64,000 bases of DNA from Bispira polyomma (taxonomy: Eukaryota): contig OZ287751.1 in the NCBI GenBank assembly GCA_965649765.1, positions 39,308,001 to 39,372,000 of the forward strand. Direction: 5' to 3'. The notes under the pieces were generated by a model. That model did not search any database. It worked only from the letters and a program-made list of their open reading frames with translations, and was not told the origin of the DNA. Made by a program: the position numbers and the translations under genes. Positions 30,191 through 56,507 of this stretch are shown here, piece after piece; position 1 is the first letter of the stretch, and each line of letters starts with the position of its first letter.

Positions 30191-31806
30191 ATTATTATTA
30201 TTATAGATTTTTAACGCGCTTTATTGATGCTAGGCATCTTCTAAAGCGCAACAGCAGAATCATTAGTCCAATCATTAAGTCCATGGAAAGTGCAAAGTCG
30301 TAAGGAAGGAAGTGGGAGCGTGCACGAGGAAAGCTAAGGTGGGTAGGCAAGATTAAAAAGATAGGTTTTAAGCTTTTTCCTAAAACCGATAAGTGTGTCA
30401 ACTGATCTGAGGTCAACTGGGAGACTGTTCCATAACCGTGGAGCTGCAGTGGAGAACGCTCTGAAACCCGCCTTTCTGATTGGTCTGACCGAAGTGACAG
30501 AGAGTGTGTTGCCTCTCTTGCGGTTACTGAAGGAAAGAAGGGAGGCAAGGTAGGGTGGCTGTTGAGTGATTACAGCCTTAAAAGTGGTAACGTGAATTTT
30601 AAACAAAATTCGAGATATAATGGGCAACCAGTGTAATTTTTTGAGATAAGGAGTGACGTCTGTGCGACAACCCAGGCGAAAAATGACCCTACATAGGTAG
30701 TTTTGGATGGACTGGAGCTTTTTAATGTTTGACTTATTTGCTTCGTACAAGAGAGAATTGCAGTAGTCGAGGCGGCTACTCACAAGGGCATTTGCCACAG
30801 TTATCGCTGTGTCCATGGACAAGTGGTTTCTGATTCTATTGATGTCGCGTATGTGGTAATAGCAGGAGCGACAGATGTTGGCAACATGAGTATCGAACGA
30901 AAAAGCTGAATCAAAAGTGACACCCAGGTTTTTAGCATTTTCGGAAGGTAGTATGTCTTTTCCCAGCAGGGAGATGGGAAACAAAGATTTTAGGAGTTCA
31001 CTGTTTTTCTTGTTTCCTATGAGGATGAATTCTGTTTTGTCAGGGTTAAGCTTTAGTTTGGAGTAGTTCATCCACGCCTGGACATCAGACAGACAGTCTG
31101 CAAGTAGGTCTATGTTAGTATCTGCATTTTGTGGATTGAGGGAGAGATAGACTTGAGTGTCGTCTGCATACATGTGGTGTTTTATATTGTGTTTATTGAT
31201 GACAGTGCTGAGAGGATGTGTATAAAGGGTGAAAAGTAGAGGACCAAGGACGGATCCCTTGGGTACTCCATATGGAAGTTTTATAGAAGATGATAGGTGA
31301 TCATCTAGTTTAATTCTTTGTGCCCTAAGAGTAAGGTAGGATCTGATCCATTTAAGGACACTGCCATTAATACCGAACCACTGCTTGAGAGTGTCACAGA
31401 GCAGGACATGATCAATAGTGTCGAATGCAGCTGAGAGATCCAGAAGGGTGAGGGCCACTGTGTCATTGCGGTTCAGTGCAAGATTGATATTGGAAAAAAT
31501 TGCTGATGGAAAAAAGGGCACTTTCTGTAGAGTGAAATTTTCTATAAGCAGACTGGTGGCGATTTTCAATGTTTTGTCTATTAAGGTGGTCAGAAATTTG
31601 TTTAGCTACAGCTTTCTCGATGACTTTTGAGATGAAGCTGAGGTTTGACACCGGTCTGTAGTTTTTGAGCTGGTTTTTATCAAGCCCTTGTTTTTTAATC
31701 AAGGGAGTTACATTTGCCATCATGAAACAGGTGGGAAAAACACCATCCCGAAGAGAAAAATTTTATATATTTGTTATGGGTGTGACAAGAATGTCAAGAC
31801 AACTGA
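30191..31806 (-). mobile_element. 5'-truncated L2/CR1-group LINE retrotransposon
   Basis: RT motifs NYRPVSNL, LDLSAAFDTIDH, GVP(K)GSVLGP, YADD, LKLNPDKTE, then SRLDYCNSLL and LHWLPI, which are typical of the L2 clade. 3' stem-loop at 30216-30249, (TAA)n tail at 30191-30204 and a putative TSD at 30179-30190/31807-31818. Confidence 0.93.
30334..31806 (-). pseudogene. Disrupted ORF2 reverse transcriptase of the L2 LINE
   Basis: RT is split between ORFs 31463-31723 and 30334-31569 by a frameshift near 31490-31500. In-frame TAA at 31763-31765. Conserved Q of GVPQG is replaced by K (31258-31260). The endonuclease domain is absent. Confidence 0.9.

Positions 31807-35287: not shown

Positions 35288-35289
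<2 letters not shown>

Positions 35290-35348
<59 letters not shown>
35290..35348. repeat. (TA)n microsatellite
   Basis: About 29 perfect TA units. Confidence 0.97.
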
Positions 35349-41034: not shown

Positions 41035-41275
41035 GCATCTGCTTCACACTGGCCTCTCACCAAATGAGGGTTTAAATCCAGCTTGTTACATCATGTTGAA
41101 AAGTTTGTCAGGTACTTGCAATAGGGAGGTCAGTGCTTTATACACAGCCTTAGCATTTTGGTGTCTTCCACCAGTGATTCTGGCCATAGTGTGTCTGACA
41201 GTGTTTCACCAGTGTATCTTGCAATCTGTGTAAATCTTTAAGCCATTTGTAACTGATTTTAAAACCCAACTAAAT
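41035..41275 (+). mobile_element. SINE family 1-like, old copy
   Basis: actggcctctcacc...gggtttaaatcc...atgttgaaaagtttgtcaggtacttgc...cttccaccagt. Confidence 0.6.
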
Positions 41276-42509
41276 GCAAACTCAAATTATTTACATGTAT
41301 TCATCTCTGTGAAAAGATAGGCAAGGTGCAAGTGATACCAAATATCATAATGATGGCAGAAATAAAGCCCAACTAAAACTACTGGCCCCCAAATTCTAGT
41401 GGTACTGCAGCAGGTTAGGCCCACCTGGCATGTTTTTCTGTGCAACATTAAATTTAGTTTAACATGGATACTGGTGGTATTAAAACAACAAAATGACACA
41501 CATAATTGGTAACCTATTGAAAATCTATATTTTAAGATTTACTGGCAAGTTTACTTTTCTAGTTAAAAATAGGGTTGAACAGAACTGTTTAGCTAGAGTT
41601 AGCCTCAACTGTTGCAGTCATATATAAAGTAGAACACCTGAAATAGGACTCATACTTGTTTATAATCACAAATTGACATTACTGATGTTTGGATACCTTA
41701 ATACATCTGTACCAATACTTGTTCATTTGAGGGTCAGTTCTACTAAATGTTGATTCTGAAGCCAATGAGGATAATCCACTTGTTTGTTTTCTTATTAAGC
41801 TGCCTTTTTCCATGCCCAATGCTCAATGCAGTACAAAAAGTACTCAATTATTGCCTCCCACCTGTGGGCGACCAGTGATATTATTGATTTCTGTCTCACA
41901 TTGATAATTTGCTCTAGTCAGTATAAACATGTAAACAGCGCATTTGGGTTTTTGTTTGGAGCTAATATGTGATGGTTGATGTCAACAAACAAGTCTGTGT
42001 ATCTCTGATTGTGGAAATGTCACCAAATGTCACCAAAGTTTCTATCATTTTACACATATACAGGGCGATCATCTGTTGTTTTTTTTACCATAAGCTACTT
42101 TAAATTAATGCTTTGTTTGTACACGCCAACCATCTTTTCCCCAAAAGGGTACAACTTTATTCCAAGCCCCCAAATAAAATAATAAAATGGTGCATTAATA
42201 ATAATTTTGTGAATATGTTACTTAAATAAAGTGCTTTGGTCGTTCAACCACCTTTTCCACCGTTTAGAATTCTACTTCTTTTCACTCCCTAAAAATACTA
42301 AGCATATAAGATGGTGTGTATATATATAAGCTGTTCCACTTGATAGATAAATGTGTCATAAATAAACCATGCTTATAAGTATTGAGGAATTAGTGTATTT
42401 ACATTGTATTTAGACTGATTTGTAGGCCCATATAAAAGGGTTACACATATCACAGACTCTTCTGTTGTAAATTCTTTAGCCAAGGCTTCCTTTCAGCATA
42501 TTTTTATAG

Positions 42510-42995
42510 GCAGATTTTGTCGGTCATTATTTAATATTAGCAACAGCTTCCCTTTAACATATTTCCCTCAGATCAGACGTTAGCGGACGTCTGTCTCTCC
42601 ATCAATATTTATCGGTCAGGGAGTGAAATAATCAGGAGGTCGGTCCGATTTTTTAACAAAAATGAAGAAAAAAAAAATATCAAAAATTTTAACACCATTT
42701 CACATGGTAGATATCGGATGAAAGTAAGCGCTACATCGGTTGATGTCAGCTCGGTTCGAATTTGAATAAATGGGCTAACATCATGATTGGCTGAAAGGAA
42801 GGCGAGGCTAACTCTTTGTCAAATTGCCCTGTGTAATCGTTAGTGTATCTGTGAACTGGATGTAATAATGTAAACTGTGAATCTAAGATATCTTCATAAT
42901 GGTAAAAACCTGGATGCTTTTGTGGGTGGAACTCGACACCAGAGTGGAAATACGAAACAACTTAAGCCTTTAATGAGTGCTCCCCTGGTTGGTCA
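42510..42995 (+). promoter_or_regulatory. CpG-enriched candidate alternative promoter
   Basis: Local CpG enrichment, reverse CCAAT box (ATTGG 42786-42790) and hairpin CAGACGT-tagcgg-ACGTCTG at 42574-42593. Confidence 0.33.
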
Positions 42996-44689
42996 TTATA
43001 ATTTTGATTTGTGTCAAACTTGACCCAAGATATTATTAATATATTGATGTTTTTGTTGTTTTATTTTTTATTGCTTCTCTATAACCACGATTGTGACCTA
43101 TTTGATGAATCAAAGATGTATACATTATTAAAATGCTTATCCTAACTAATCAAGTTGGGCTTTCTTTAAGGATACATACTAAGGTGGAAGAATAGTGCAT
43201 GCAAATCTTGGCCATAAGCAAATGGTTTAAGGTCGTCGCAAAGATTTAAGAGCTTGGTTGTAAATAGGCACAAAACTAATGTTTGGTTTTTGTGCCTGGC
43301 TGTCTTCTGGCATCTTTTATTTCACAAGCTCATCCATCTATTAATAAATCCTGGGCCTAGAAATCTGACCTCTCCCTTGTCCTGTGCCCTTTTAATTATT
43401 AATGACGGTGTAAAATAACAACATCTGTTTGAATACAACTCAACAAACAAAGCTAATATGATTTGGTATCTCTGTACTCTGATTTTGTAGCCATTGTTTA
43501 AAAAACACGTGGGCTATATGCTCTATTCTGACTATAGACAGGTGTTTTTATTTTATGGCATGTTATTCAATCAGTTTATTCTAAGCACATTTCTACAGGT
43601 TTACTGTAGTGAGTTGTATTATAAGGTAATTACTTGTTTACATTCGTTGTGGGTTTTTGCTCTGGCTGTATTCTGACAATAGACAGTGATTTTTGTAGCA
43701 TATTTTATCAGTTTCTAAAGTACACTAATAATACAAACCAGACATAATTTTTATAGGTTTACTGTAGATACTTGTAGTATTCAGTATTAACTTGTTTATA
43801 CATTCTTTGTGAAGTTTTTGCTTTTGCTTTTTTGTGGAATTAATCTTGTCTATATCAGTTCTGAAGCTTTTAGTACTTGGTCCTACCAACCCTTTAAGCT
43901 AGTTATCAGTTTAATATTATAGACGATGATGTCCATACACCACTATAAAATGTGAGTGATGTTTTTCATAATACAGTTATTATAAAAATGGTGATAATAT
44001 GTTATCAGCTGGTTTTACAAACCAAGAGAGGGCAAACGTGTGCAGAGCATAGACAGAATAGGCTAATTGTCTTATCAATTTGACCCTGAAAGCTGATTAA
44101 TAAATGTTTTATTTACAAAACAGAAAATACAGTAAAATTAGGTATGTTTTATCTGGGAAGTTTGTTGCAATCTTGCCAGGTTTTTTAATAAACGACCACA
44201 CCTCAGCTAAATATTATGGAATTTCTGTTATAATTTCTTGTGCAGTTTTTAACTACATTAGATAAAATTGTAAGATAAGTGCAGAAAGATATACTGATAT
44301 ATTTAAAAGAACAACACTACACCAAACAAACATGTATTTGAAATATTAAGGAATTACAGTGTGACCTTTTCTACAAATATATATATCAGATTTTATTTCT
44401 GAGAAGTATTTTACCTTATTAGTATTTATGTTATTGAAACTGAAGAGTTATATCATAAAAATGAATATATATCATAATAAAGACAGAGAATATTGGTTCG
44501 GAAAAGATAAAATGACACATTTATGAGTAAAAAAAATACACCCTTGCCTTTCACTAGTTGATTACTAACACGTTATATAAATAAACAAAATATTAAACCG
44601 AGAAAATAACTTGTGCTTAAAATATCTACATTACCCCTTACAAGCAGAACAATAGTAGTCTTTTTTAAAAAAGGCATTGGTGCCCAATG

Positions 44690-45210
44690 TGACACATTCC
44701 CTCAGTTTGGCCTAAACTGTATTTCAAAGAAGCGTGAAATAATATATACTCCTTCTGGAACGAGTGGGGCCGGGACTCGGGGCCTACTAGTAGATCAGGG
44801 ACCTTCATCATTCCACGCTTCTCTGGTGTGTCCTGATAATTGCCTGATAATATAAATCTGACACTCCCCTCTCAGTTTGGCCAGGTCGATTGACTTCCAA
44901 CTCAATCCACGTAGGCCTTACCTATTTCCAACATGGCGGCGCTCCTTTCACAAAGTTTAAACAACCTAATAAAAAAAAATATTTTTCAAAATTCTCACAC
45001 ACAATTTTTTATTCATGCCTTAGTGCAAACTGAAGTGGTTTGTACATATTCATCTGGTCGTGCTTATTATGGGATGGATTTGTAACACAACAAAACGCAT
45101 GACCTCATCTTCAAATTATTTCCGCAAATATATGGATGATGAGCTGTTTTAATTGTATTGTATTAATGTCCGTCCTACACATCACGTAGTTCCTGTTTGA
45201 GGCCGTGTTT
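44690..45210. promoter_or_regulatory. CpG-enriched candidate promoter/enhancer with a YY1 site
   Basis: CAACATGGCGGC at 44929-44940 and a duplicated GACAC..CTCAGTTTGGCC at about 44691 and 44861. Confidence 0.35.
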
Positions 45211-48200: not shown

Positions 48201-50190
48201 AGCTTAATAATATAAATGCACACCACAGTGTGTCAATAGATAAGTCGTGCTGGACTAACTAATCTATGAATTCTGTATGAGTCAGACATATTTTTCCAGG
48301 TGGTTCGGCTAGTTCATTTTATTGTGGATTTTTATGATTACATCAAGTGCCCTGGTGTGTGATAGTATGGCTATAAATATATATAAGATCCTAGTGTCTA
48401 TGCCAGAAATGTTGTATCCTCAATTTAAACCAGAAGGGGGATGTCAATGCTAGCTAATGGGTTAACTAACTTACATGGGTGCCAAATACACTTTTATAAT
48501 ATGTGTAGCTATTTTGTGTACATACATATAAGGATATGAGTTTCATTATAGCAGGAATATATTATTAAAAACAAAAACAGCAATAATAATAATAGGGAAT
48601 ATTTAGAAGCAACTTTGCAGAATTTCAAACCTAAATGACTAACGGGTTCTGACTGAACAAAGTCAGTTATTTTGGATTAATCAGAGAAGGATATGGAATG
48701 CAAAACAGCTGCATGTTTTAAAATCTAATGAAGTGACTCATTCTATGTAAAATACTTTACAAAAAAACAAAAAAACAAACTGTGACAGGTCCGTTGTGTT
48801 GGGTTCTAAAAAATGTCGCATACAAATAACTGCTATTAGTACAATTTATAAGTGAACTGAAGAGAGACATATATTTGTGTATGTGGAGAAAACAAGTGAG
48901 AGAGAAAGAGACGAATAAGGCATCTTAAAAATGCACAGCAGTAGTACTTCATTGGGTATATAAGGAGTATTATATGTCTCTTATTATACACAGTTGGAAG
49001 TCAGCCAAGCATTGAAGGGCCATAACAATGATACCGTAAGTAATACATGCATAATTGTCATTCCAGCAGTTTGGTATACAGAAAATGTTGTATATTATTA
49101 AAACAGACTAGATTTGATATAGATTTAAGTCAGTTGTTGCTCGTTGTTTGTTCTGTTCAGTTATTCATTTAAAAGTTTCTCAAATGAGAATGCAAATTGA
49201 GAAAACTGTATAATTTTTAGTTTTGAAAATGGTGTTTTTTCATACATTGCCTGGATAATAACGAAACGTATGTCTGGGTTTGTGCTTCGCAGAAACTAAA
49301 AATACACAAGGCACATGAAATAATGATCATGGGTTTAAGTACTTGTATAATATAACTATTTAAATCAGTTTAAGTACTCATTCAGTTGTGTTGCTAAATA
49401 AAGACATCCTTGTCGTTTTCATGGCTGCATTGTTGAGGCGTATTGAGGTGGTTTTATGCACCCCCTAAAAGGATTGAATGATATCATTATGAACTCACCC
49501 ATAGGTACTGTTTGTGTGATAGGTTTGGGTGCCCTTATAGAAATTTTGAGAAGGCCTTTGACAGTGTGCGAGGGCTTTCATGCATACAACACTTAATATA
49601 ATGCATACGGTTTTCATGCCACTTCAGTGATGTCTGCAAGACAGAAAAAAGTTATAATAAGGTGAAGGTTTTTGCTTGTGCAGTGTCTTGAATGCTTCTG
49701 TTGGTTAAGAGTAGCAAATATACAATACTTTGCAATCAAAGTGGTTATACATGTACTTATATAACATGTGAGTTGTATGCTGAGTATATAGTATTCATAG
49801 TAAAATATATAACACTGGTTGCTGACAGATCTTTAAGGAAAAACATATGCTCTTAGTGGATATGTTACGATCGGATATGTTATGGTAAATGTGATACAAT
49901 GAATCATAAAATAAAGACATATAGTTTATACTGTACTTTATTGGCTAGATATCTATCTGTTCAGTCTTTTATGACCTCAATGTAAACATGTACGATAGCA
50001 GGTTGCCATTATCAGCGTTTGATATATAATATTTGTCTGGCTTTGTGTCTAATACTACTTACTGCATTTTTTAACATTAAAACTATTGTTTCTCAAAAGT
50101 TATAAACAATAAGCTTGAACAAATGGGATTTTGTTACTTCGTTGATTTTATATAGTATGTCTCTTAAATATGGTTATTTTGTAATTCCAG

Positions 50191-53100
50191 GTGCAGTGAT
50201 GTGAAAGTACGGCTCAGCCAGTCTGAATTGCGGGCATTTGAGCTCTTCGTCAGTGGACGACATGACACCAAACTGGTAGATTCGGACAGTGATTCGGAAA
50301 ATTTTTTGTGTCCCTGTGGCAAATCTTTCAAACGGAAGGCATCTTATCAGCGGCATATGGACATACTCCACTCTGATAACAATACAGTTTCGTACATATG
50401 TAATGTGTGTGGGAAAACATTCGGGAAAAAATGTACCCTTACAATGCACATGAGCATCCACGAACCTTCCAAGAAAGCGTTTGATACTATGGAACATCCC
50501 TCTACACGGAGACAAAATAGATCTGCTACAAGTGTATCTAGTCCAGTATTAGTGAAAAAGAGTGAAGTTGAGAAATTAGCAAACAGCAAAAACTCTGTTC
50601 AAGTTGTCACAAAGTCTTTATCTGAAGAAAATACTAGTGCTAGTAAAGTGGAGAAACATTTCACGCGGTCATCTTTAAGTGAAACTCATCATAGCAGGTC
50701 AGTGGGAACTCCATCACAGAGTTGCAGTCAATCATCAGAAAGACATCAAACTGTTGTTGGTCTTACTAAGGCAACTGATGCTACGGGGGGCGATCTTGTA
50801 AAAGAAGATACAGATGTTCCTGGTCCACTGTATGGGGCGGAAACTTGTGTAAACAACAATAACATCAAAAGGAATGTCACTAGTGATACCTCTGAGGATT
50901 TATCCAACAACAATAACAGTTTAATCTATACTTCTAAAGCAGAAAGTGTGTCTGGCCAACATAAGGATAAACTGCCAACATTAACATCTAGTTCTAGTCA
51001 TGATAGTGACAAAGAAAACACAGAACAGACTGTGAAAGTTAAGGATGGTTTAAGCAAGAGATCAGAAATCATTCCTAAATCTGTCATAAATCTAAGCAAA
51101 AAGTCAGCTGACTCTGTAGTCGTTGTGCCAAAAGAGCGTGAAAGTAAAGTAGCAGTTGTAAAAAATACAGACCATTACCCACCTCAAAAACAAAACACAC
51201 AGACAATCGTAATTGTTATTCGTGAAGCAAAACGTGTAAAGAGTGACGACAGTGCTCCTACATCAAGCACAGACAAGATGAATTGGACTCAAACAAATTC
51301 ACCCTTTGTTGGGCGTCAAGTTGTACAGTATTCCACAGCACAGTCAGAACATAATAGTTTTACTAAACAGGTCATCTCATCACAACCTGTCCGAGTCGTT
51401 TCTCATCCTATTCAAGTGCTAGATACACAAAAAGGTGCAGTACATTCCATGAAGACATTTCTTCCTAAAATGGCAGTGAACCATTCATCCCCACAAAGTG
51501 TAGCTGAGAATAATAATGTCATAACCATGCCTATAAAAGTGACACAAGCAAAGCAGAATGTAGTCCGAAATGTTGCCAGTGTTGCTCCAAGTGTCGTCAC
51601 GACTGCACTGCCCCAAGGTATACATTTGGTCCAACAAGTGAAGGATGAACCACCTGAGATGTCTTCAACAGATTCTGACCTGAGCCACTTTTCTGATACC
51701 ACAGAATCTGATGACTGTGTGGAGGATACAGAGTATGCTCCCATTCGAAAAAGTGCACGGCTTGATGGCAAAGTTCCAGGGTGGAAGAAAATACTCACCA
51801 AGGACAGTGATACAGGTGTGCAGGAGCCAAGACAACGCAAACGGAAAGCAGTGAGGCCTAAGGTTGAGGATTTGCAAGATATAGATGATGGAGAACTAAG
51901 TGGGGCAGCTGAAGAGCTGTTTGGAAATGTAGCAGCTGACATGGACATTGATGATCAGGAAATACAAGATATGTCATCATCAATTTTCTCTCGACAGCCC
52001 AGAATGTACAAAGATGACTACCCCTGTGACATTTGTGGCAAATCGTTCAGCACAGAAAAATACCTGCAAATGCACAGTTCACTTCATGGAGCATCAACAC
52101 CAGCCAGAAATCTAGTAGCAGAGAATTTTAAAATGAATGACATTAGAGATGTTGATGGTTACCGATCAACATGGACTTGTAAGATCTGCAACAAAGCATT
52201 TGCTCAAAATTCGAGTTTCAAGAACCACATGCGTACTCATTCTGATGAAAGACCATTTGTGTGTAACATTTGTTCCATTGGTTTTAAAGAGAGGTATCAT
52301 TTGAAAAAGCACATGCTTTTTAAACACAGTGATGAATTGAAAGAGAAATGTCAGTTTTGTGGGAAAAGGTTCAAGGATTCTACAGCAGTTAGAGCTCATG
52401 AAAGAATACATTCCGACCACCGACCGTATCACTGCAGAAGATGTGGAAAGGCTTTTAAAACAAGTGAATGCCTGTGGCACCATGAAAACAGAAGCAAAAC
52501 TTGTGGTGCTTTAGGCGGCCCACCTCTACCCCCATTACCGAAGAAAGGCAGAATGAGTCGGAAATCAAAAGTTCAAACCCAACTTGATGAGCCAGCTCTG
52601 AGTGACATGACAAGTATAGAACTGAAAAGGGAAGAAGACAGCATGCTGGACCTAGTGGAACAGATCATACATGCAGATAGTTCCAGTGCTCAACCACAAA
52701 CCAACAAGATACAGCACCATGGACCTACTGGGCAAAGTGTTACAACCAGTCATTATAACATGCCAATTCAGAATACACCTATAACCATGCCAAGCAGCAC
52801 ATCAGGAAATGTGTCACAAGCGTATATACAGGCAATCAATAATTACAATTCCACCAGACCAGTCAGCGTAACACAGGCAGTACCTGCAGTGCCAAAAAGT
52901 ATTACATCTTCTCAGACAAATACTGTGAAATTGCCACATGGACAACAACTAGTATTTTCTGTACCTGTATTGAAAGATGGCAAAATGGACCCTGCAGCAC
53001 AAGTTACCAAGGCAATACTTGATGCTATAAGTAACACTACAGGTCACCTGAAGGGAAATGTAAACATCCAGAGGACCATACAATGTGCTGTTAATAATGT

Positions 53101-55168
53101 ACAGGAGGCATTTGATACAAATAAGGAGGGTCAAAGCCAAATTGTGGGTGTTGGTCAACCGAAAGTAGCTATCCCTATAGTGAAAACTGAGAGTGGAAAC
53201 TTTGCAGCAGTTGTACCAAATGTAAACCACAAAATGCACTTGTCTAAATCTGTTGTGCAGCCATTTCAGAAACAAGAGGAGGCTAAACCTGCACCAGTTC
53301 TTCTGCAAAATGTTGGCTTAAACAGCTCTCTTCAAGACAATGCTGCTCAACATGCTGTACCCACACAGCAGAATGGGCTCCAACACCATGCATCATCCAC
53401 AACTAACAGACCGTATACAGTCAGTATACTGCCACCTATTGCTAGTGTGGCACAGGCCCTCCAGCCACAAATCAAATCTGAAAAGGAGGACCTAGCTGAG
53501 GAAGAATATTCCACAGATTCTGGAGATGACGATGACATGGATGAAGATTCTATACCACCGATAAGCCAGGTTAAACATGCAGAGAAAATTGCAGTATCTG
53601 GCAACAGTGCAAGACCAGTAGCAGCAGTACAACCAGTGAGAAGAGTAGATTCAGACTTAAAGGGTATGATCGATGACGATATCAACAGGAATGGGGTCAT
53701 AGAATCAACACAGGAACCTCATATCTGCCAGCCAGCAAAAACAAAGCAGAGCAATTATACATGTCCCAAATGCCAGAAAGGTTTTGCTGTTTTATCTGCT
53801 TTTCAGAAGCATCTGTTGAAACATGAGGAAGTCCGTCCTTTCAGATGCAATACCTGTGACATTGGCTTTAAGCTAAAGGTCCATTTGAAGAAGCATAACC
53901 TGTACAGACATAGTCTAGATTACCCATGTGAATGTAGGATTTGTGGAAAGCGCTTTAAAGATTCCTCAGCAATACGACTCCATGAAAGAATTCACTCTGA
54001 AGATCGTCCATTTGAATGTGGATGTGGCAAAAGCTTCAAGACAAAAGAAAATCTATGGGGCCACCAAAACAGGAAGATGTGTCCTTATGCAGGCTATCCA
54101 CCACCATCTCAAGACAACAAAGATTTTGAAATCAAACAAGAAAATGCAGTTCAAGCCCAGGCAATTTTAGAAGGAGATGGTGTCACAGCTTCTGCTTCAG
54201 TGAGGTCCCTGCAGAATGAGATTATTGCAGAGGCCAAAGTATCGAATAGCAAAGTAACTGCACAGGCCACCATTGGCAAAAATGGGGAAGTCAAAGCCAG
54301 TGTTCATCCGAGTCAGTTTATGGTATCCTCTGCCGAAAACAACTTTTCATATGACCCAGGTAATCAGATGACTGACCATAAAGCAATTTTGAAAACCGAA
54401 AATGGAGAAATTCATTGTAGAGTATCACTGCCATCCAGTACATCATCCTCCCAACTCCCGTCGTTTGAAACCTTCGCAGAACCCCCCAGTGCTTCTATGG
54501 AGCAGAATCTAGTCACATCTAAAGGTGTTGTGATGTCTCTCCTTGATGGCACCATTCAAATCAAGAAGGAGTCCATTGCAGACCAATGCCCGACCATACA
54601 GAATTTGTTGAAGAGAGGCCCAAGATCGGTGACCAAGTTGCCAGGCATACAGCAGCTGTTTAAGCAACACATTAAACCTCCGCCTCCATACCCAGGTCAC
54701 ATGACCCCACCGCACTATTCTGATGGCTCATCACATTCAAGTGGTAGCCCGATATCTAGTCCAAGCCATGGCATACCTTCATCTAGTCCTCTGTCACATT
54801 CGTACAGTCGTCAGAATAGCAGTCCCGATGAGAGTCCCAATCTCAACATGATGCTGAACCCAGACCAGCTCTTTACGACCACCAGCAGAGACCCATTCCT
54901 GCGTACTCCTCCGCCCCCTCTGTACAGTAAGTCTGCAGAGAGTTATGGCTCTCCTTCTGAATACTGTCTAACTATGAGTGGCACCCCCAAGAGTCCCCGG
55001 ATGTCCACCGCTGTCTCCCCAGCCCCGAGTGGATGCGGCGATAGCAACGTCCCCATCGTCTACTGGGATGACGAAGCTGACCGTAAGCCCGTCGTGGCTC
55101 AGTGGCAACAGACCGACTCTGACACGTTGTTCCATGAACTCTCCAGCAGCATGATCAACCAGTTGTAG
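50191..55168 (+). CDS. Giant terminal coding exon of a multi-cluster C2H2 zinc-finger transcription factor (11 fingers; N-terminus encoded upstream)
   Basis: 1655-codon open frame. Fingers: CPCGKSFKRKASYQRHMDILH, CNVCGKTFGKKCTLTMHMSIH, CDICGKSFSTEKYLQMHSSLH, a 4-finger array at 52178-52504 and a second at 53762-54082, with SDERPF/SDHRPY/SEDRPF linkers. Splice acceptor ttattttgtaattccag|G at 50190/50191. No in-frame ATG precedes the first finger. Stop TAG at 55166-55168. Confidence 0.95.
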
Positions 55169-56267: not shown

Positions 56268-56507
56268 AGAGTAAGTAAGAATCTAATATTTGCCATTGTA
56301 TCTGAAATTCACCCCCCCACCCACTCCTAGAAAATGTTGTGTTTTGGGTAGAATTGTAGGTAATATTTGCTGAAATTTTGTATGACTGTCATGCCTTATT
56401 TACCCAAATTCCAGTTATTGTTTTCCCAGTTTTTTTTATTGAAGTAGGGTCAAATTTAAGGGTGGTGAATTTTAGATACAGTTGCAAATTTTAGACTCCT
56501 TACTCTG
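56268..56507. mobile_element. MITE (Tc1/mariner-like) in the putative 3' UTR
   Basis: ~45-bp imperfect TIRs: agtaagaatctaatatttgccattgtatctgaaattcacc versus reverse-complement agtaaggagtctaaaatttgcaactgtatctaaaattcacc. The right end is ...CTG|TA. Confidence 0.75.

Follow-up and report, generated by a model that had tools for sequence, protein, structure and literature searches.

A long open frame (50168-55168) in the window analyzed here, a 64,000-nt stretch of the Bispira polyomma genome, encodes 11 zinc fingers in the order 2+1+4+4, and the last eight make up two separated arrays, A and B, that are old duplicates of one another. We read the product as a sequence-specific annelid transcription factor that would use array A as its main DNA-binding unit and array B, which is likely the weaker of the two, to read another, related site; we put the probability of this reading as a whole at about 0.6. 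An earlier note on this DNA had proposed an uncharacterized invertebrate family that binds two related sites, and both parts of that proposal remain our best account: the named relatives are annelid hypothetical proteins, and no orthology to a characterized family was found with PDB and Atlas searches, the tree, or AU tests.

Gene structure and fingers ahead of array A

The large coding exon occupies 50191-55168 on the forward strand, as do all features below (~1,658 codons, with a TAG stop at 55166-55168). We place a putative splice acceptor at 50190|50191, in phase 2, because a pyrimidine tract and CAG lie directly before 50191, because there is no in-frame Met ahead of finger 1, and because similarity to the close relative P0002 begins at the same point. 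In several relatives, a Met stands shortly before finger 1, only a few residues away. An upstream exon with a start codon was not found (a donor-site scan gave eight unconvincing candidates), and the three sequence runs examined behaved as genomic contigs, with no splice joint seen in them. A search for the upstream recurrent motif mentioned in the earlier note found nothing more than simple repeats and a small number of short words scattered over the region.

In a Pfam search of the exon, PF00096 scored 133.7 bits over 11 stretches. The fingers are of the classical C2H2 form (C-x2-4-C-x12-H-x3-5-H, with a beta-beta-alpha fold predicted for array B), the deviating ones being two with C-x-C spacing and two with a terminal Cys. 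The earlier note had listed two C-x-C fingers with the arrays; the CGC finger (B4) does lie in one, but the CPC finger is the N-terminal one, at 50309. This finger is the first of a pair (50309-50461; the second begins at 50399) that is kept in the family, with C-x-C spacing in 18 of the 28 members scored. A short basic/Trp motif, RKS.RL.GK.P.WK (51746-51787; alignment A1), is found in both deep clades and lies ahead of a single conserved C2H2 finger (52025-52087) with the helix x-E-K-Y-L-x-M (62 members scored). The fingers at 50309, 50399, and 52025 had been overlooked, as had an 11-residue repeat and conserved motifs after array B.

Arrays A and B are products of a single old duplication

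Array A (52178-52504), the more conserved of the two, consists of four tandem fingers, the last a CCHC finger (H-x6-C); array B (53762-54082) is its duplicate, with a variable or lost finger 1 and a CCHC last finger (H-x5-C) that has the C-x-C spacing. A rereading of the sequence showed the earlier note to be exact on the positions of the arrays, on the pairing of their four fingers, and on the Trp-bearing end fingers. The arrays are identical at 62 of 111 columns, and in global alignment they share 56% identity with a score of 339. Among 462 control four-finger windows, drawn from non-family proteins and loci of the same genome, the best alignment to array A reached 46% and 244 (mean, 34%) and the best to array B reached 39% and 204. 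The best non-self match of A in its own 1-Gb genome is B, at 128.8 bits, followed by one at 91.3, and the sole non-self match of B fingers 3 and 4 at an E value of ≤1e-8 is A (150 of 1,596 candidates scored). The control windows and the own-genome matches together reject a chance likeness of generic fingers; the arrays are more alike than generic C2H2 arrays are, as had been supposed. Membership in a tandem, expanded finger cluster was also rejected, a second copy being absent among the scored own-genome candidates.

In a phylogenetic tree, A and B formed separate clades (support, 99/89 and 97/83) that were joined against 36 outgroup windows with support of 100/99; in a smaller, 26-row tree, A alone and B alone were weakly supported (87/64 and 70/67). 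A constraint pairing this gene's own A and B was rejected (p-AU, 7.6e-6), and the two agree at no more than 3 of their 15 fourfold sites. Recent duplication and gene conversion are rejected by these three results, and since A and B are separate sister clades, the duplication was single and old and the arrays have not been homogenized. In an AlphaFold model, array B forms four finger folds, with a pLDDT of ~90 for fingers 3 and 4.

Recognition helices and predicted DNA reading

The fingers are in tandem, with canonical spacing and TGEKP-like linkers, and their recognition-helix residues are near-fixed across the family and unlike between A and B. The helix of A finger 4, TSECLWH, occurs in 74/74 members scored, that of B finger 4, T[RK]ENLWG, in 51/53, and that of B finger 2, [LM]KVHLKK, in 50/51; tallies for A fingers 3 and 2 are partly circular, since the same motifs served as search patterns. 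Under the published base-recognition rules for C2H2 fingers (PMC12264921), fingers 2 and 3 of both arrays, with their Lys, His, and Asp, are predicted to read a common C-G-G-like core. The flanks would differ, with Thr/Cys/His in A finger 4 and Thr/Asn/Gly in B finger 4, the latter partly resembling an AT-reading SALL4 finger. Two features weigh against this reading: half of the base-contact positions are small or aliphatic and unreadable by the code, and A finger 2 has at helix position 2 a Tyr, a residue that in certain fingers may prevent contact with the base. Moreover, helices as conserved as these would suit a conserved protein or RNA partner equally as well as DNA.

The earlier note had called the helices Arg-poor and had concluded that RNA or protein binding is plausible as well. 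Arg is indeed absent from positions −1, 2, 3, and 6 in all eight array fingers, but those positions do hold Lys, His, Asp, Glu, Asn, and Gln, and the lack of Arg is no argument against DNA binding because SALL4 uses small/hydrophobic residues plus one Asn, reading AATA by means of Thr and Asn (PMC9672407). The same lack is nevertheless one of the points in favor of a rival account, which we consider unlikely, in which DNA binding falls to A alone, while B, or else the pair of CCHC end fingers with their Trp, would contact protein or RNA. That account would also fit the Leu and Val at positions −1 and 2 of B finger 2, the variability or loss of B finger 1, the invariant Trp of the end fingers (at helix position 5, which is not one of the base-contacting positions), and the CCHC fingers of U-shaped, which are reported to mediate protein contacts. 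However, B fingers 2 to 4 retain the tandem linkers and, at base-contact positions, the same Lys, His, Asp, and Thr as A; the DNA-binding arrays of ZBTB7A and CTCF also have end fingers of the CCHC type; and of the 52 B arrays, 2 have His as the terminal ligand where the others have Cys.

The linker between the arrays

The arrays are separated by 419 residues, in keeping with the ~420 of the earlier note, and the linker is rich in S/Q/V/P/A/T rather than strictly of low complexity. Across 50 members the spacer ranges from ~106 to 475 residues, and neither its sequence nor its length is conserved; it is likely disordered. Two compositional features do recur. A basic patch that follows array A (52541-52570) is a likely nuclear localization signal, and the first 30 linker residues hold three to eight Lys/Arg in 12/12 members checked. 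Ahead of array B is an acidic, Ser-rich stretch (53480-53551) with 12 D/E in 20 residues, and its counterparts have 4 to 18 D/E across 12 members checked. Because the linker is unconserved and likely disordered, the two arrays would engage two sites with free spacing and orientation, by analogy with BCL11B, whose arrays have been shown to do so (PMC13225276).

A repeat and conserved motifs downstream of array B

Array B is followed, at 54149-54316, by a tandem repeat that is rich in Ala, has a period of 11 residues, and makes up five predicted strands. AlphaFold predicts a beta-meander, an open, single-layer, flat sheet of five strands with an invariant Ala, at a pLDDT of 85 to 87 in context (mean of 75.9 when modeled alone). 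The repeat is found in both deep clades with variable copy number, P0014 having a longer form, and is kept in 12 of the 49 members that have a complete B4 and sufficient downstream sequence. It had no Pfam match and no usable Atlas match, and fold searches returned generic meanders only (best Z, 6.9, with none ≥8; best Foldseek E value, 0.39), a result compatible with a family that such listings miss. Farther on lie the conserved motifs LPxFETF and IAxxCPTIQxxL...KLPGIQQLF (54455-54661; alignments A1 and A2), predicted to form short helices and likely to bind cofactors, and a C-terminal acidic/aromatic motif (55052-55165) that ends in a predicted amphipathic helix (residues 460 to 474 of the AlphaFold model). 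All 23 matches to a profile of this last motif were family members or their C-terminal pieces, and searches with the motif and with the repeat led to no named family. We suggest that the repeat and the C-terminal motifs recruit partners or cofactors and that the terminal helix, which looks activation-domain-like, would most likely be an activation domain.

The repeat also lends itself to a different account, in which the protein is an annelid-specific architectural (looping or insulator-like) factor: the strand-extendable, Ala-rich meander would pair with itself as a new self-association domain, and oligomers carrying duplicate arrays on a tether of free length would bridge distant DNA sites. 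The sheet is confidently modeled, its open single-layer shape would call for a partner surface, and its presence in both deep clades at variable copy number is consistent with such a role. We regard this account as improbable, since most members with sufficient sequence do not keep the repeat, its fold matches are generic, and the acidic/aromatic C terminus seems closer to an ordinary activation domain.

Family distribution and losses of array B

Array A was found in 75 sequence clusters, and 52 of these also have B. The named members are four, all from annelids (Capitella, Helobdella, Paralvinella, and Ridgeia) and all annotated as hypothetical proteins; these four names suggest that the family is restricted to annelids. 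A deeper-branching clade comprises P0013, P0014, P0020, P0034, and P0052. The family is conserved, has no functional name, and is apparently unstudied: no paper on it or its locus tags was found in the main texts of the open-licence literature.

The 23 representatives with A only might suggest that many members have A alone, but for the most part they probably reflect gene-calling breaks: four end inside B (P0034, P0143, P0145, and P0150), and in five, P0145 included, the downstream part is a separate frame on a contig of equal length. Another four (P0046, P0050, P0051, and P0167) lack B and retain the downstream motifs, and these look like true losses; both array searches used A as the query, which may inflate the class with A kept and B lost. 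B finger 1 is gone in P0029 to P0031, and P0136 and P0146 have a decayed B.

We consider it very unlikely that rapid divergence has disguised an orthologue of one of the known finger families of bilaterians (ZNF236, E4F1, ZBTB7, or SALL). In favor of this idea, ZNF236 also has internally duplicated four-finger modules, the nearest outgroup row is, weakly (56/82, long branch), Owenia P0058, which has arrays ending His...Cys and which we take to be E4F1, and SALL3/4 and ZBTB7A are among the PDB matches, but a clade of A arrays and ZNF236 modules was rejected (p-AU, 1.5e-4), Capitella possesses a separate ZNF236-like protein (P0033), the PDB and Atlas matches are all generic (Atlas searches with array A gave generic finger clusters only), and neither the C-terminal motif nor the repeat led to a named family.

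A strongly conserved, single-copy regulator family that is apparently confined to annelids is a candidate for lineage-specific gene regulation, with Capitella and Helobdella as tractable species. With the fixed differences between A and B and the natural losses of B, the divergence of DNA-binding arrays after duplication can be tested cleanly, and the 11-residue repeat, which matched no family or fold in the searches above, would be a new transcription factor accessory domain.

Comparison with known systems

ZEB/Zfh1 and Schnurri/HIVEP have separated, similar finger clusters that are thought to bind bipartite sites, with a homeodomain between the two clusters in ZEB/Zfh1 and separated pairs of fingers in Schnurri/HIVEP. 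In contrast, the linker here lies wholly inside the exon and no homeodomain is among its 13 Pfam matches at an E value of ≤1, the arrays are four-fingered, and neither family is among the strong relatives listed. FOG/U-shaped proteins have dispersed single CCHC fingers, whereas the CCHC fingers here are the fourth fingers of tandem arrays. ZNF236 is closer in design, having old, internally duplicated, separated four-finger modules from annelids to vertebrates (57 to 69% identical within one protein, the Capitella orthologue included), but it has ~25 to 30 fingers and other helices and forms a separate clade.

BCL11A and BCL11B offer a close parallel in layout. BCL11B has two homotypic arrays forming high- and low-affinity halves and joined by an ~300-residue linker with an acidic stretch (PMC13225276); the protein described here likewise has homotypic C2H2 arrays in unequal halves, and the long linker between them, which is likely disordered, also includes an acidic stretch. 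BCL11 differs in having 2+3 fingers that read GG through Arg/Lys, compared with 4+4 fingers without base-contact Arg here, and in having less diverged base-contact residues between its arrays (7/8). The similarity between the two proteins is generic only, at ~50 bits over 55 residues.

ZBTB7A has a four-finger DNA-binding array with a CCHC end finger, ZF4 (CX2C-12-HX5C; PMC12264921). Its matches span the whole array at a generic 47 to 69 bits, but it has a single array, and a Pfam search confined to the exon at 50191-55168 found no BTB domain. SALL4 zinc-finger cluster 4 shares Arg-free recognition, and B fingers 3 and 4 share with it (counting from the first His) Thr at −7, Asn at −4, and, in the finger before, an aliphatic side chain at −1; the full sets, Leu, Thr, Glu, Asn, and Gly versus Ile, Thr, Gly, Asn, and Val, are identical at 2/5 positions, with Glu for Gly at −5 and Gly for Val at −1, and the fingers here are in four-finger arrays, not pairs. 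Gly-to-Asp at −5 of SALL4 is a disease mutation. The open antiparallel meander predicted for the repeat is common to OspA, the lipovitellin sheet, and phage spike sheets, a likeness of arrangement only.

The earlier note had called the end fingers atypical; the twin arrays and CCHC ends are real, but each is known by itself, in ZNF236 and ZBTB7A, respectively, and because proteins with split homotypic arrays or a CCHC end finger have been described before, the surprise is limited. In our best reading, the protein is not a member of BCL11 or ZEB, though it would work like either; its novelty would lie in the family and the repeat, not in the design.

Twin four-finger arrays lie within one protein

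A single open frame of 1,666 residues, 50168-55168 (+), contains the whole of the finding. It has a putative splice acceptor at 50190|50191, and no Met precedes the first finger, so we read the frame as probably one large last coding exon, with a putative first exon upstream. Pfam identified 11 C2H2 stretches in the protein; it gave no convincing match to any further domain. The fingers are arranged 2+1+4+4: two N-terminal fingers at 50309 (+) and 50399 (+), a single finger at 52025 (+), and two four-finger arrays, A at 52178-52504 (+) and B at 53762-54082 (+), separated by 419 residues. The earlier note had quoted finger pairs from A and B, and every one is present; of its two short-spaced C-x-C fingers, a C-P-C finger exists, but it is the N-terminal finger at 50309, outside both arrays. 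The two arrays that it listed are correct, but it missed the repeat and C-terminal motifs beyond B.

The twin-array observation is real. A and B are identical at 62 of 111 aligned columns (56%; score, 339), whereas the best matches among 462 four-finger control windows, taken from non-family proteins and loci of the same genome, reached 46% and 244 for A and 39% and 204 for B; the likeness thus exceeds that of generic C2H2 arrays. Fingers 2 to 4 each find their best partner in the counterpart finger of the other array (scores of 87, 98, and 71), and the finger 1 counterpart score (51) is not above generic (56 versus B3). In the Bispira polyomma genome, the best non-self match of A is B (128.8 versus 91.3 bits; 150 of 1,719 candidates scored). 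Among the candidates scored, fingers 3 and 4 of B match A alone at E ≤ 1e-8, and the gene therefore looks single-copy. Long tandem C2H2 gene clusters occur elsewhere in the genome (contigs C6, 81.5-82.6 Mb; C2, 5.2-7.1 Mb; C7; C4; and C11); these are a lineage expansion unrelated to the single-copy gene in the window. The implied rarity of an internally duplicated module did not hold up. The best internal pair scores above 339 in 44 of the 66 control proteins with two windows. ZNF236 orthologues, with 57-69% identity between their separated modules, are among these, so a four-finger module duplicated within one protein is a design already known.

Elsewhere in the window, two open frames (423 and 99 aa) at 30334-31762 (-), apparently split by a frameshift, have motifs that resemble those of a LINE-type retroelement in its reverse-transcriptase region. 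High-copy dispersed repeats, visible as peaks in depth and as loose ends of aligned contigs, lie at ~44720-44970, 41060-41310, 42500-42680, and 56280-56500, with depth near 56300 at >1,000-fold background. At 43286-43837 is a local, degenerate repeat (families D7, D8, and D16) whose copies recur every ~145-160 bases, and a long (TA)n microsatellite lies at 35288-35348.

Duplication history and distribution of the family

Two array A searches, the second represented by the best 120 of 383 matches, yielded 140 cluster representatives. The A signature is present in 75 of 141 sequences (these representatives plus the window's protein), 52 of which also carry that of B; members are ~73-99% identical to A and ~61-98% identical to B. 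The four named members are all hypothetical proteins of annelids: those of Paralvinella palmiformis, Capitella teleta, and Helobdella robusta are among the matches listed, and that of Ridgeia piscesae was the sole name obtained from 30 clusters examined. In the same listings, the named proteins from molluscs, a nemertean, arthropods, echinoderms, and vertebrates are all generic finger proteins, none above 50% identity. The family is therefore likely confined to annelids, judging from these four named members.

Phylogenetic analysis of 48 family arrays, drawn from 28 selected members, together with 36 outgroup windows placed A and B in separate clades (99/89 and 97/83) under a joint node (100/99), values to be read with the few columns, long outgroup branches, and incompletely settled bootstrap in mind. 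One deep split was repeated identically within A and within B. A 26-row subset tree recovered the joint clade (100/100), with weak values for A alone (87/64) and B alone (70/67). Grouping of the window's own A and B was rejected (p-AU, 7.6e-6), as was grouping of A with ZNF236 modules (p-AU, 1.5e-4). Synonymous sites are saturated between A and B (3 of 15 fourfold sites identical). The separate clades, AU tests, and saturation are all explained by a single old duplication without homogenisation. The nearest outgroup in the larger tree, with weak support, is an Owenia fusiformis protein (P0058), which we take to be E4F1; this different protein also has two separated arrays, each ending in a His...Cys finger.

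Recognition helices are nearly invariant among the members matched by each pattern: E[RK]YHLKK in A2 (73/73) and DSTAVRA in A3 (73/75), both partly fixed by the patterns themselves; TSECLWH in A4 (74/74); [LM]KVHLKK in B2 (50/51); DSSAV[RK]L in B3 (46/53); and T[RK]ENLWG in B4 (51/53). B1 is variable and is absent in P0029-31. The A-B spacer ranges from ~106 to 475 residues (50 members) and is unalignable among distant members. Array B has decayed in P0136 and P0146 and is missing, with downstream motifs kept, in P0046, P0050, P0051, and P0167; most remaining A-only entries appear to be frames broken at introns. Losses of A would be under-detected because A served as the query. P0034, P0143, P0145, P0150, and P0202 all break at one point in B2, which suggests an intron shared by those relatives and absent from the window's gene. 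In P0127 and P0131, the last finger of B ends in His rather than Cys, restoring C2H2.

An Ala-rich repeat and conserved motifs follow array B

An Ala-rich repeat of 11-residue period (consensus, [VI]-T-A-[HQ]-A-[ST]-[IVF]-x-N-N-[QG]) immediately follows array B; six of its Ala are invariant across 11 aligned members. It was found in 12 of the 49 members having a complete B4 and sufficient downstream sequence, in both deep clades, with 2 to 7 motif matches per member. AlphaFold models it as five antiparallel strands (pLDDT, 85-87 in context and 75.9 alone). The repeat matched nothing in Pfam or Atlas; comparison with 48,161 chains gave a best Z of 6.9, with none at ≥8 and no specific fold, and Foldseek returned nothing at E ≤ 0.001. 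Its profile had 32 matches among 1.84 billion representatives, 12 of them family members (four new); the 12 inspected among the other 20 were all unrelated periodic repeats. One such repeat, P0200, scored as high as family members (99 bits), so the profile is incompletely specific. Further downstream are the conserved motifs LPxFETF and IAxxCPTIQxxL...KLPGIQQLF, and the terminus carries a conserved acidic/aromatic motif whose end is predicted to form a helix. Among the best 7,991 candidates scored, the terminal-motif profile retrieved 23 proteins, each either a family member or a C-terminal fragment of one. We infer roles for the repeat and tail from shape and composition alone.

A search of the open-licence literature, supplements aside, found no paper on the family or its locus tags. 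The family, the 2+1+4+4 layout, and the beta-meander repeat all appear to be undescribed; the working principle is already known.

A predicted bipartite DNA-binding domain

On the simplest reading, the protein would be a transcription factor whose DNA-binding domain is bipartite. Two features had been raised as doubts about DNA binding, and both are weak. CCHC end fingers occur in ZBTB7A, whose fourth finger is CX2C-12-HX5C, and likewise in the last finger of CTCF (PMC12264921); as for Arg-poor helices, SALL4 reads AATA using small or hydrophobic residues and one Asn (PMC9672407). U-shaped CCHC fingers are the subject of a title in the reference list of PMC7614390. Trp occupies helix position 5 in the end fingers of A and B. 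This position is not in the base-contact set, and the Trp may serve to pack the long loop between His and Cys or to contact a partner. Under the base code (Lys/His to G, Asp/Glu to C, and Asn/Gln to A; PMC12264921), finger 3 Asp and finger 2 Lys and His would predict a C-G-G-like core common to A and B. A would extend the site 3' with a C and A-rich bases, and finger 4 of B would contribute an A on the 5' side, in a site predicted from a code that is uninformative at roughly half of the positions. In PMC13225276, BCL11B has two homotypic arrays, one a high-affinity and one a low-affinity half, joined by an ~300-residue linker that includes an acidic stretch, with spacing and orientation free; it is the closest worked example for the two-array DNA reading proposed here.
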